From contig NC_090399.1 in the NCBI RefSeq assembly GCF_036365525.1, positions 8,555,558-8,619,557 on the forward strand: DNA of 64,000 nucleotides, read 5' to 3'. How positions within the stretch are numbered: the stretch's first letter is position 1; each line of letters starts with the position of its first letter. The notes under the pieces were generated by a model that was not told the DNA's origin, ran no database searches, and saw nothing but the letters and a program-made list of their open reading frames with translations. This document shows positions 37,640 to 64,000 of this stretch, in pieces. Position numbers and translations under genes: made by a program. The stretch comes from Heterodontus francisci (lineage: Eukaryota).

Positions 37640-37645
37640 TTTATT
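37640..37645 (-). terminator. Candidate polyadenylation signal of the CRAT-like gene
   Basis: AATAAA on the minus strand about 1 kb past the stop codon, at the end of a repeat-free AT-rich 3'UTR-like stretch and followed by T-rich sequence. Confidence 0.55.
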
Positions 37646-38631: not shown

Positions 38632-38847
38632 CTATGCAGTCTGCCTCGATGTCTCTAAAACTAAGTTTTGCATGTCTGACAGAGCAGTCTCCAGAGATTT
38701 TGAAAACCATTCTGCATTAGTCTCTTCACAGCAGTTGAAGGCAGAGACCGAGAAATTGATATGGTCTTCTAGGGGATTGTACCAGACGCCATATCCATCT
38801 GGCACCATGGGACCAAAGCACATCACGCAGTCTGCTCGGGCGGCCAC
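38632..38847 (-). CDS. Carnitine O-acetyltransferase-like, terminal exon (VAARADCVMCFGPMVPDGYGVWYNP...LETSRQTA*)
   Basis: Acceptor cctgtacag|; 216 nt including TAG; DCVM-x-FGP-x-VPDGYGV-x-YNP motif of CrAT. Confidence 0.95.
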   Translation of the reverse strand: MAARADCVMCFGPMVPDGYGVWYNPLEDHINFSVSAFNCCEETNAEWFSKSLETALSDMQNLVLETSRQTA

Positions 38848-43988: not shown

Positions 43989-44126
43989 CTGTCCTGTTGA
44001 GAGCCTCCAGTGTGTCGCCACAGCAAAAGATGTGTCCATGAAGATCTCTGGCACACTCAGACCTTCTTCAATAGCCTGCAGCTTCAGGCCCAGCAAGTGC
44101 CTGTCAATCGCCATTCCTTTAAGTGC
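43989..44126 (-). CDS. CRAT-like exon (ALKGMAIDRHLLGLKLQAIEEGLSVPEIFMDTSFAVATHWRLSTGQ)
   Basis: cacag| ... |gtatgt; 138 nt; DRHLLGLK motif; the STS motif reads STG. Confidence 0.95.
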
Positions 44127-45604: not shown

Positions 45605-45667
45605 CATGTCTGTGTAAGCACCATGGCAATCGACAGCTTTCCTCAATGCTGCTATCTTCTGGCCCAA
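45605..45667 (-). CDS. CRAT-like 63-nt exon (LGQKIAALRKAVDCHGAYTDM)
   Basis: ttccttgaataacag| ... |gtaag; 63 nt, phase 0-0; aligns to CrAT EHQKVELLRKAVQAHRGYTDR. Not in the ORF track. Confidence 0.92.
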
Positions 45668-45880: not shown

Positions 45881-47217
45881 AATCAGTGAGTATGGTCCTC
45901 CAGTCAGGATCAACACTGGGATCAGTGAGTGGGAATCCCCAGTCAGGATCAACACTGGGATCAGTGAGTGGGAATCCCAGTCAGGATCAACACTGGGATC
46001 AGTGAGTGGGAATCCCCAGTCAGGATCAACACTGGGATCAGTGAGTGGGAATCCCCAGTCAGGATCAACACTGGGATCAGTGAGTGGGAATCCCCAGTCA
46101 GGATCAACACTGGGATCAGTGAGTGGGAATCCCAGTCAGGATCAACACTGGGATCAGTGAGTGGGAATCCCCAGTCAGGATCAACACTGGGATCAGTGAG
46201 TGGGAATCCCCAGTCAGGATCAACACTGGGATCAGCGAGTGAGGATCCCAGTCAGGATCAACACTGGGATCAGTGAGTGAGGATCCCCAGTCAGGATCAA
46301 CACTGGGATCAGTGAGTGGGAATCCCCAATCAGGATCAACACTGGGATCAGTGAGTGGGAATCCCCAGTCAGGATCAACACTGGGATCAGTGAGTGGGAA
46401 TCCCCAGTCAGGATCAACAATGGGATCAGTGAGTGGGAATCCCCAGTCAGGATCAACACTGGGATCAGTGAGAGAGGATCCCCAGTCAAGATCAACCCTG
46501 GGATCAGTGAGAGAGGATCCCCAGTCAGGATCAACACTGGGATCAGTGAGTGAGGATCCCAGTCAGGATCAACCCTGGGATCAGTGAGAGAGGATCCCCA
46601 GTCAGGATCAACACTGGGATCAGTGAGTGGGAATCCCCAGTCAGGATCAACACTGGGATCAGTGAGTGAGGATCCCAGTCAGGATCAACCCTGGGATCAG
46701 TGAGAGAGGATCCCCAGTCAGGATCAACACTGGGATGGTGAGTGAGAATCCCAGTCAGGATCAACACTGGGATTAGTGAGTGGGAATCCCCAGTCAGGAT
46801 CAACACTGGGATCAGTGAGTGAGGATCCCCAGTCAGGATCAACACTGGGATCAGTGAGTGGGAATCCCCAGTCAGGATCAACACTGGGATTAGTGAGAGA
46901 GGATCCCCAGTCAGGATCAACACTGGGATCAGTGAGTGAGAATCCCAGTCAGGATCAACACTGGGATTAGTGAGAGAGGATCTCAGTCAGGATCAACACT
47001 GGGATCAGTGAGTGGGAATCCCAGTCAGGATCAACACTGGGATCAGTGAGTGAGGATCCCAGTCAGGATCAACACTGGGATCAGTGAATGAGGATCCTAG
47101 TCAGGATCAACACTGGGATCAGTGAGTGAAGATCCCAGTCAGGATCAACACTGGGATCAGTGAATGAGGATCCTAGTCAGGATCAACACTGGGATCAGTG
47201 AGAGAGGATTCCCAGTG
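45881..47217. repeat. 38/39-bp minisatellite (cagtcaggatcaacactgggatcagtgagtgggaatccc) x ~34
   Basis: Tandem units are directly visible; they explain the 13-aa periodic ORFs. Confidence 0.95.
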
Positions 47218-49615: not shown

Positions 49616-49751
49616 CTCCTTTTCTGGATCATCCATACTTGTCACAAACTGCAAGGAATCTGTAGATGATGATCGGATTACATCAGTGCGTCCTAGGTGG
49701 AAGTTTCTCAGTGAAACGCTTTCGCATGTGGCACACAGCTCCTTGTACATT
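49616..49751 (-). CDS. CRAT-like exon (MYKELCATCESVSLRNFHLGRTDVIRSSSTDSLQFVTSMDDPEKE)
   Basis: ttttcag| ... |gtact; 136 nt; aligns to CrAT CATYESASLRMFHLGRTDTIRS. Confidence 0.95.
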
Positions 49752-51965: not shown

Positions 51966-52088
51966 CTAAAATAGGCCAATTGTAGTGCCATTTGAACAAA
52001 GGAATCTGGACTCATGCCATGTAGTTTGGGGAAATCTTTGCCAAAGTTCCTGTAGGTGAAGCAGCTGATATCCAAGTCATTAACTAAA
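51966..52088 (-). CDS. CRAT-like exon (LVNDLDISCFTYRNFGKDFPKLHGMSPDSFVQMALQLAYFR)
   Basis: gttacag| ... |gtacgt; 123 nt; FGKDFPK and SPD-x-F-x-QMALQLAY family signature. Confidence 0.95.
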
Positions 52089-54321: not shown

Positions 54322-54441
54322 ATGTCCAGATTCTGTTTGGCGTGCTCAATGTCTCTTTTTATCTCTGGAGTGATGTAAAAATAAAGTTTCTTGGGTAATG
54401 GCAGAGGAATCATGGGAGCTCGAACTGTATCTGGGTCCTTA
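54322..54441 (-). CDS. CRAT-like exon (KDPDTVRAPMIPLPLPKKLYFYITPEIKRDIEHAKQNLD)
   Basis: ctttctag| ... |gtgagt; 120 nt; aligns to CrAT [33 protein letters not shown]. Confidence 0.95.
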
Positions 54442-56037: not shown

Positions 56038-56138
56038 CAATAATCTAGAACATGATCTAATATGGTGACAATGGGTGGGCCCTCTGCAGAAGACTGTTCA
56101 TATATAACACCACAGGATCCATCCTCCCCGACAATGAA
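56038..56138 (-). CDS. CRAT-like active-site exon (FIVGEDGSCGVIYEQSSAEGPPIVTILDHVLDY); catalytic His replaced by Gln
   Basis: gttacag| ... |gtaag; 101 nt; aligns without gaps to CrAT FIVAEDGSCGLVYEHAAAEGPPIVTLLDYV. Not in the ORF track. Confidence 0.95.
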
Positions 56139-60124: not shown

Positions 60125-60303
60125 CTGCAGAGTTTTGTCAAACCAACGGTTTCCACTGTTCGAGTAGCTTCCTCCTCCATGCAGCATCTGAGCTGCCATG
60201 CGGCTGGTGTACTTCTCCTCAGAGATCTTCAGGACTGGAGAATCGAGACACACGGTGAAAATACTCTTCTGAATGGCCCGCACCGATTCTCTGTTCAGTT
60301 TGT
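60125..60303 (-). CDS. CRAT-like exon (DKLNRESVRAIQKSIFTVCLD...QMLHGGGSYSNSGNRWFDKTLQ)
   Basis: tcctcag| ... |gtac; 179 nt; LHGGG and NRWFDK motifs. Confidence 0.96.
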
Positions 60304-62449: not shown

Positions 62450-62624
62450 CTTTCATGAGGGTATTGTAGGCCTGTCCCCACGTGTTCCTGTGATCACTGG
62501 TGAGCACACCCAGTGGCTCCTTGTCCGTTTTCCAAGAAAGATTCCGGATACGCTGCAACTGCATGTGAATCTGATCCACAGTTAGAGGGGAGCCATCACT
62601 GTTATACACATCCAGGTGAAAGAA
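62450..62624 (-). CDS. CRAT-like exon (FFHLDVYNSDGSPLTVDQIHMQLQRIRNLSWKTDKEPLGVLTSDHRNTWGQAYNTLMK); upstream exons lie beyond the window
   Basis: ctctttgcag| ... |gtaga; 175 nt; aligns to CrAT FFVLDVYHSDGTPLT...EPVGILTSNHRNSW. Confidence 0.95.
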
Positions 62625-62669: not shown

Positions 62670-64000
62670 CAAAGAATTCCATTGCAACAGAGCCTCAGAA
62701 TAAGCAATAATTCCCACAGAATTACACTGTAACACAGCCTCAGAATAAGCAATAAATCCCACAGAATTACACTGTAATACAGCCTCAGAATAAGCAATAA
62801 ATCCCACAGAACTACACTGTAACACAGCCTCAGAATAAGCAATAAATCCCACAGAACTACACTGCAACACAGCCTCAGAATAAGCAATTGACCCCACAGA
62901 ATTACACTGTAACACAGCCTCAGAATAAGCAATAAACCCCACAGAATTACACTGTAACACAGCCTCAGAATAAGCAATAAATCCCACAGAACTACACTGT
63001 AACACAGCCTCAGAATATCCAATAAATCCCACAGAATTACACTGTAACACAGCCTCAGAATAACCAATAAACCCCACAGAAGTACACTGTAACAGCCTCA
63101 GAATAAGCAATGAATCCCACAGAATTACACTGTAACACAGCCTCAGAATAAGCAATAAATCCCACAGAATTACACTGTAACACAGCCTCAGAATATCCAA
63201 TAAATCCCACAGAATTACACTGTAACACAGCCTCAGAATAACCAATAAACCCCACAGAAGTACACTGTAACAGCCTCAGAATAAGCAATAAATCCCACAG
63301 AATTACACTGAAACACAGCCTCAGAATAAGCAATAAATCCCACAGAACTACACTGTAACACAGCCTCAGAATAAGCAATAAATCCCACAGAACTACACTG
63401 CAACACAGCCTCAGAATATCCAATAAATCCCACAGAATTACACTGTAACACAGCCTCTGAATAAGCAATAAATCCCACAGAATTACACTGTAACAGAGCC
63501 TCAGAATATCCAATTGACCCCACAGAATTACACTGTAACACAGCCTCAGAATATCCAATAAATCCCACAGAATTACACTGTAACACAGCCTCAGAATAAG
63601 CAATAAATCCCACAGAATTACACTGTAACACAGCCTCAGAATATCCAATAAATCCCACAGAATTAGCCTGTAACACAGCCTCAGAATAAGCAATAAATCC
63701 CACAGAATTACACTGTAACACAGCCTCTGAATAAGCAATAAATCCCACAGAATTACACTGTAACAGAGCCTCAGAATATCCAATTGACCCCACAGAATTA
63801 CACTGTAACACAGCCTCAGAATATCCAATAAATCCCACAGAATTACACTGTAACACAGCCTCAGAATATCTAATTAACCCCACAGAATTACACTGTAACA
63901 CAGCCTCAGAATATCCAATAAACCCCACAGAATTACACTGTAACACAGCCTCAGAATATCCAATTGACCCCACAGAATTACACTGTAACACAGCCTCAGA
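62670..64000. repeat. 45-bp minisatellite (cacagcctcagaataagcaataaatcccacagaattacactgtaa) x >=29, running off the window
   Basis: Tandem units are directly visible; they explain the 15-aa periodic ORFs. Confidence 0.95.

Follow-up and report, generated by a model that had tools for sequence, protein, structure and literature searches.

In canonical carnitine acetyltransferases (CrATs), we take Ser554, the second serine of the STS motif, to stabilise the oxyanion; we likewise assume CoA-site roles for Ser456, Arg464, Arg504 and Gln555, and carnitine-site roles for Tyr452, Ser454, Thr465, Arg518, Phe566 and Val569. The mouse CrAT double mutant S554A/M564G (PDB ID 2H3W), which lacks the Ser554 hydroxyl, was crystallised with bound acylcarnitine, presumably with CoA bound as well. 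Because this structure is titled as a hexanoylcarnitine complex, ligand binding can be reconciled with a missing Ser554 hydroxyl. Another point of comparison is CPT1C, which keeps its catalytic histidine. A report on CPT1C describes a vertebrate paralogue that has only residual activity, binds malonyl-CoA and is a proposed sensor; it belongs to the CPT1 branch, resides in the ER and is expressed in mammalian neurons, and it sets an example within the family of an inactive protein that binds acyl-CoA (PMC5934389). For CrAT itself, PMC11852590 gives His343 as the general base, Lys419 and Lys423 as contacts of the CoA 3'-phosphate, and Asp430 and Glu453 as shaping the pantetheine site.

The gene analysed here, cratb, is already named, has database records and is not new as a gene. 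In PMC8919083 and PMC11463132 it is handled as an ordinary peroxisomal or carnitine-pathway gene, and its missing residues go unremarked there. The same papers describe zebrafish Cratb as lacking the peroxisomal signal PTS1 (PMC8919083) and list cratb among the hypoxia-induced genes of tilapia liver, up at 6 h (PMC11463132). The supplements of PMC8919083 contain no cratb row. No paper noting the loss of catalytic residues in cratb or its MHC location was found in the literature searched, and subscription papers may have noticed either. The same literature yielded no activity or binding measurement of cratb.

The stretch of DNA analysed (the window) comprises 64,000 nucleotides of Heterodontus francisci (contig NC_090399.1, forward-strand positions 8,555,558 to 8,619,557). 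A motif scan and splice-site inspection identified nine exons between 62624 and 38632 (Table 1), all bounded by AG and GT, with 416 codons and no internal stop. They encode residues 211-626 in the numbering of human CrAT (PDB ID 1NM8), within which Gln343, Cys452, Gly504, Gly554 and Met569 were read; residues 1-210 fall outside the exons identified in the window. The 416 residues are 100% identical to RefSeq XP_067865496.1 (P0398), which carries a Heterodontus francisci label. That protein matches PF00755 over profile positions 1-573 with 635 bits, and the window exons match PF00755 too. Contigs from all four runs skip four introns at CT..AC ends; the joints coincide with introns, and that the runs are RNA is a guess. 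The sample behind runs X1 and X3 is possibly the window's own source. The 3' UTR lies under contigs as far as 38200, the edge of the stretch compared, and the nearest AATAAA is at 37645. Inspection by eye showed short units repeated in tandem within introns, in two arrays at about 45900-47000 and 62700-64000. Outside these arrays the window holds many fragments of what we take to be LINE-type reverse transcriptases.

Table 1. Coordinates of cratb features in the window
Feature	Position	Strand	Remark
GGA codon, Gly554	43992..43994	-	Ser554 in canonical CrAT
Coding exon, S-T-G-Q end and Arg518	43989..44126	-	PF00755 match; both sides spliced in 4/4 runs
CAG codon, Gln343	56094..56096	-	Catalytic His343 in canonical CrAT
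Coding exon, YEQ-x-x-x-EG motif	56038..56138	-	Splice-site model; absent from listed contig pieces
Cys452 codon	49724..49726	-	Tyr452 in canonical CrAT
First coding exon within the window, residues 211-268; clade-specific Arg237, Trp241, Lys242	62450..62624	-	
Coding exon with HGGG and NRWFDK	60125..60303	-	
Coding exon with clade-specific Tyr382	54322..54441	-	Within spliced X3 contig
Coding exon, CoA-side Lys419, Lys423, Asp430	51966..52088	-	Spliced in contigs
Coding exon, Cys452, Glu453, Ser454, Ser456, Arg464, Thr465	49616..49751	-	Spliced in contigs
63-base coding exon, Gly504	45605..45667	-	Arg in canonical CrAT; contig joints both sides
Last coding exon: Met564, Met569, stop	38632..38847	-	C-terminus QTA, without PTS1

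The exon carrying the STG motif ends in H-W-R-L-S-T-G-Q, followed by a GT donor. Position 554 was assigned to its glycine by a gapless alignment of the ray orthologue to 1NM8 and a count from His343. The contig of run X3 has no differences from this exon, and that of run X14, from a related organism, has one, whose place was not given. GGA is at least two bases away from any serine codon, and therefore a single-base error cannot yield Gly554. An earlier note had read STG in place of STS at this codon and had considered a single sequencing error an unlikely explanation for H343Q. The STG reading was borne out on the minus strand and is unchanged in the spliced X3 contig, and sequencing error is excluded: two base changes would be needed, and contig and RefSeq protein concur.

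When the STG exon was used as a query, the top matches were shark and ray 'CrAT-like' proteins and bony-fish 'carnitine O-acetyltransferase b' proteins. Because this query is biased to glycine, a caecilian orthologue of full length served as the second query, and the best 120 of its 1520 matches, all 120 from vertebrates, supply the main counts. Sorting these 120 by their identity as a whole, six site columns being masked, gave 39 canonical CrATs and 81 cratb proteins. In the tree, the cratb clade had support of 100/99 (99 in a second tree) and the canonical clade 99/97, each roughly tracking the species tree. The window gene fell outside the canonical CRAT clade. Zebrafish Cratb (NP_001004594.2) fell within the cratb clade; it clusters at 90% with P0142, itself sorted into cratb. 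Its tree position makes the window gene orthologous to zebrafish cratb, and so the shark member of an ancient jawed-vertebrate paralogue distinct from CrAT itself. The idea in the earlier note of a lesion in a damaged CrAT thus has to be given up, as the trees place the gene beside an intact canonical CrAT. Judged by its sequence, the window protein belongs to the choline/carnitine acyltransferase family and the cratb orthogroup, and is probably not an active CrAT. Its nearest solved relatives were CrAT (849 bits) and, far behind, CPT2 (231 bits), and the trees were built without any CPT1.

The cratb gene was seen in sharks, rays, ray-finned fishes, coelacanth, lungfish, caecilian, salamanders, frogs, squamates and turtles, and bird cratb formed a long branch. 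A hagfish copy, with Arg343, Ser452 and Asn554, joined cratb with support of only 73/51; its placement with CRAT was rejected (p-AU 0.015), and its position as outgroup to CRAT and cratb was not (p 0.37). No mammalian or crocodilian cratb occurred among the matches listed (best 120 of 1520; 150 of 7192, 16 of them named; 120 of 1139), which is a weak indication of loss. To our knowledge, humans have no cratb gene. A grouper cratb (P0177) has been deposited in error as 'catalase'.

The shark protein resembles zebrafish Cratb in sharing its clade, Gly554, Cys452 and the lack of PTS1, with 65% identity over 416 residues. The two differ at positions 343 (His in zebrafish, Gln in the shark), 552 (Arg, Ser), 430 (Asn, Asp) and 454 (Ile, Ser). 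With canonical CRAT/Crata (PDB IDs 1NM8, 1NDB and 2H3P) it shares PF00755, the fold (TM 0.92), about 60-65% identity, and Lys419, Lys423, Asp430, Glu453, Ser454, Thr465, Arg518, Met564 and Phe566. It departs from them by H343Q, Y452C, R504G, S554G and V569M, by the lack of PTS1 and by its separate clade. Compared with the mouse mutant in 2H3W, it lacks the Ser554 hydroxyl as well, whereas the mutant retains His343 and Tyr452 and has alanine rather than glycine at position 554. CPT1C is the closest functional precedent for CratB. Unlike CPT1C, CratB is CrAT-derived and has no catalytic histidine, no membrane anchor was noticed in it, and it was not found in mammals among the matches listed.

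Constraint was assessed in a lineage-balanced set of 47 jawed-vertebrate cratb proteins from nine lineages, with birds and hagfish left out. In this set, 132 of 586 positions were invariant. Orthologue identity was 67% between shark and gar, 73% between shark and caecilian and 67% between shark and lizard, and the window protein was 94-97% identical to nine other-shark proteins. The cratb protein thus appears to be subject to purifying selection. Across eight species pairs, cratb identity was 61-85% versus 76-91% for CRAT, with a different shark in each column; cratb is accordingly the faster-evolving gene in all eight, yet is not decaying. This faster pace, and the highly divergent bird copies, some of them in records flagged as low quality, speak for Gly554 being a sequencing error or the mark of a decaying pseudogene. 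We regard this as next to impossible, given the two base changes required, the agreement of spliced contig and RefSeq protein, the frame open across nine exons and the full-length orthologues in nine lineages. For sharks it is refuted by the intact exons, the spliced contig, the clade-wide Gly554 and the RefSeq identity. Bird cratb often lies on small scaffolds, yet many copies have full-length frames. The bird orthologues (P0245, P0352, P0289, P0382 and P0463-P0481) are 36-42% identical to the window protein, and the CoA lysines are absent from them.

The ray orthologue was modelled with AlphaFold from a 65-sequence alignment; the model had a pLDDT of 90.3 and superposed on human CrAT 1NM8 with a TM score of 0.92 and an rmsd of 1.1 Å. 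The first 32 residues contained 2-7 Arg or Lys and 0-2 Asp or Glu in all 33 cratb leaders compared, a region of low model confidence. A PTS1-type C-terminus (SKL or AKL) was found in none of the 33 cratb proteins, compared with 16 of 16 canonical ones. From its composition, the leader would be of mitochondrial type, and mitochondrial import is inferred.

All 39 canonical CrATs had His343, Tyr452, Arg504 and Ser552-Thr553-Ser554. Among the 81 cratb proteins (best 120 of 1520 matches for both groups), position 554 was Gly in 79, the other two lacking the exon. A contrast of 79/81 with 0/39 is not due to chance. Position 343 in the same 81 was Gln in 66, His in 11, Ala in 2 and Pro in 2; Tyr452 was never found (Cys, Ala, Ser, Thr, Asn or Phe instead), and Arg504 was present in one. 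A co-occurrence of STG with YEQ, a check that the earlier note had proposed, was seen in 64 of these 81 proteins, with His343 and Ser554 together in 39 of the 39 canonical CrATs. In the balanced set, Gly554 was present in 47/47, residue 343 was Gln in 42, His in 3, Ala in 1 and Pro in 1, and Tyr452 remained in one protein, from a turtle. Departures from Gly554 were found only in birds (Val or Leu) and in the hagfish copy; all eight birds compared combined Pro343 with Val554 or Leu554. In the wider family, clustered at 50% identity, 135 of the best 150 of 7192 entries were readable at both sites, and these comprised 119 with His and Ser, one with His and Gly, one with Gln and Gly, and 14 others.

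Three teleost lineages, each surrounded in the tree by Gln343 relatives, had His343 independently of one another, and Pro343 (in Prochilodus, in perch, grouper and tuna, and in birds) was about as frequent; this pattern looks like relaxed constraint at position 343. In zebrafish Cratb the histidine has come back. Since Gly554 was invariant in 47/47, it is by contrast a substitution that has become fixed and defines the clade, rather than a relaxed lesion. Ten further positions were likewise invariant in cratb yet unlike CRAT (114, 121, 132, 237, 242, 260, 382, 403, 511 and 594; 11 with 554). The proposal that catalysis had been released from selection therefore holds for position 343, with its Gln, His, Ala and Pro, and for position 452 with its six residues, and fails for position 554.

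The His343 proteins raise the possibility that CratB is a slow but useful carnitine acetyltransferase, at least in lineages such as zebrafish. Besides the 11 of 81 (best 120 of 1520 matches) from three separate teleost lineages, sharks retain Ser454, Thr465, Arg518, Ser552 and Phe566, and two members (P0220 and P0356) of a teleost group derived from canonical CRAT pair histidine with Gly554 too. We consider such an enzyme improbable. Pro343 arises about as often as His343, and both are one base away from Gln codons, a pattern suggestive of drift; the His343 members still have Cys452, Ile454 or Ser454, Arg552 and Gly554; and His343, replaced in most cratb proteins, is the general base (PMC11852590). 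As to whether STG is common in His-containing, active CrATs, which would have undermined the earlier note, His343 with Gly554 was seen in those 11 zebrafish-type proteins among the 81 of cratb (best 120 of 1520 matches), for which no activity assay was found. The note is not undermined by this, although the outcome lies nearer to its refuting case than had been expected.

The CRAT-derived teleost group (P0220, P0225, P0269, P0313, P0356 and P0482) is a separate, fast-evolving one. His343 is retained in it, Tyr452 is gone, and Gly554 appears in some members. The site may thus have been remodelled a second time, independently, in this group.

The window protein retains four of four CoA-site residues (Lys419, Lys423, Asp430 and Glu453) and has lost Arg504. 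On its carnitine side, Y452C and V569M are altered, and Ser454, Thr465, Arg518 and Phe566 are retained, as is Ser552 in sharks; the altered site near Thr465 is 467. At the catalytic positions it has STG and Gln343. Across cratb, lineage-weighted retention of canonical residues was 0.01 for the two catalytic positions, 0.54 for the carnitine side and 0.80 for the CoA side, against a background of 0.77 over all 307 CRAT-invariant positions. Because 0.80 is not above this background, CoA-side retention may reflect structure and not binding. The canonical residue was lost at 5 of 19 site positions versus 29 of 288 other invariant positions, a marginal enrichment (Fisher p 0.046) that depends on site lists resting in part on assumed roles.

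CratB may have kept its fold for a protein partner as a scaffold or regulator without a CoA ligand, the old site being structural. The eleven cratb-invariant, CRAT-different positions lie mostly outside known sites, the CoA side is retained at background level, and it is eroded in frogs and birds; outside birds, most teleosts have Asn and frogs have Gly in place of Asp430, and Lys423 is Gln in four of six frogs. We find this quite unlikely, as Lys419 is kept in 77 and Lys423 in 80 of the 81 cratb proteins (best 120 of 1520 matches), and a structural role would not obviously need them.

A different possibility is that CratB is active with changed chemistry, using another acceptor (e.g., an amine, requiring less base catalysis) or hydrolysing acyl-CoA, with Gly554 reshaping the pocket. 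The strict fixation of Gly554 can be read as easily as tuning toward a different reaction, since a dead site might drift. Glu/Asp347, Arg464, Thr/Ser465, Gln555 and Met564 are retained in cratb (best 120 of 1520 matches), and the carnitine side has been remodelled by lineage, as with Arg552 in teleosts. The likely orthologue in sawfish and reedfish also stands head to head with PPT2, an acyl-thioesterase gene (PMC10751288). We nevertheless consider a new reaction unlikely. Position 343 is Gln, His, Ala or Pro, and Arg in hagfish, and at the known site positions no substitute for the catalytic residue has become fixed. Acceptor-side residues vary between lineages at 454 (Ser, Thr, Ile, Val, Met, Ala or Gly), 518 (Arg, Gly, Cys or His) and 552 (Ser, Arg, His, Leu or Phe), so that no single new substrate fits.

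At residue 112 of P0398 (human 107, outside the window), Cys replaces an otherwise conserved Tyr107, which we take to be a carnitine-side aromatic. Cys110 is native in shark and ray CratB (seen in P0004 and P0398), and Met569 occurs in nearly all of these proteins (13 of 13 in one comparison). In PMC11852590, the human CRAT variants Y110C and V569M are linked to Leigh syndrome.

Downstream of cratb in the window, also on the minus strand, lies a butyrophilin-like gene with an IgV exon at 14656-14279 (PF07686), an IgC exon of butyrophilin type at 3588-3286 (PF22705) and a probable transmembrane exon at 2342-2025. This neighbour, the only one that the window shows, fits an MHC-region setting. 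PMC10751288 shows, in sawfish and reedfish, a CrAT-like gene among those of MHC class III, arranged head to head with PPT2 and followed by PRRT1 and TMEM268; we assigned these loci to cratb by name and species, not by identifier. It places canonical crata/CRAT on other chromosomes and, in a holocephalan, on a scaffold of MHC-paralogue-9 hallmark genes; CRAT is not mentioned in the main text. That cratb is the MHC-side CRAT duplicate from the early vertebrate genome duplications is a well-supported inference from loci matched in this way. A bichir gene model (P0014) erroneously fuses the SKI2 helicase to cratb.

Probably, to judge from the residues at its active site, CratB lacks normal CrAT activity. 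The reading we favour, with moderate confidence, is that shark CratB is a conserved pseudoenzyme of mitochondria, which would bind CoA or a short acyl-CoA yet leave the acyl group untransferred. The basic, acid-poor leader would direct mitochondrial import. Lys419, Lys423, Ser456, Arg464 and Gln555 would still hold CoA in the old tunnel, and bound acyl-CoA would not be turned over, Gln343 providing no general base and Gly554 no oxyanion-stabilising hydroxyl. CratB could then buffer or sense matrix acyl-CoA, with Trp132, Arg237, Lys242, Tyr382 and other newly fixed residues forming a putative partner surface that relays the acyl-CoA signal. Selection may then have favoured Gly554, whether for an unreactive site or for the shape of the pocket. 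Counting against this reading are His343 in 11 of 81 proteins (best 120 of 1520 matches), Tyr452 in the one turtle protein, the almost universal loss of Arg504, the changes at Asp430 in teleosts and frogs and at Lys423 in frogs, CoA-side retention at background level, the marginal site enrichment, and the birds, which lack most ligand-site residues yet keep an open reading frame. Only tentatively, and as a doubtful history taken as a whole, do we suggest that cratb encodes an undescribed pseudoenzyme, which arose in the genome duplications as the MHC-side twin of CRAT, was possibly disarmed before the split of hagfish and jawed vertebrates, became a mitochondrial acetyl-CoA sensor with its own protein partner in fishes, amphibians and reptiles, and later decayed in birds and disappeared from mammals.

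The cratb gene is carried by most sampled non-mammalian jawed vertebrates and is annotated as an active enzyme. If CratB is inactive, the enzyme and pathway readings of this gene would be wrong, and a conserved non-catalytic acyl-CoA role would await description. The natural series of His, Gln and Pro at position 343 on a constant Gly554 separates the effects of both catalytic residues. With CRAT and cratb, the MHC paralogous regions would also gain a metabolic pair.
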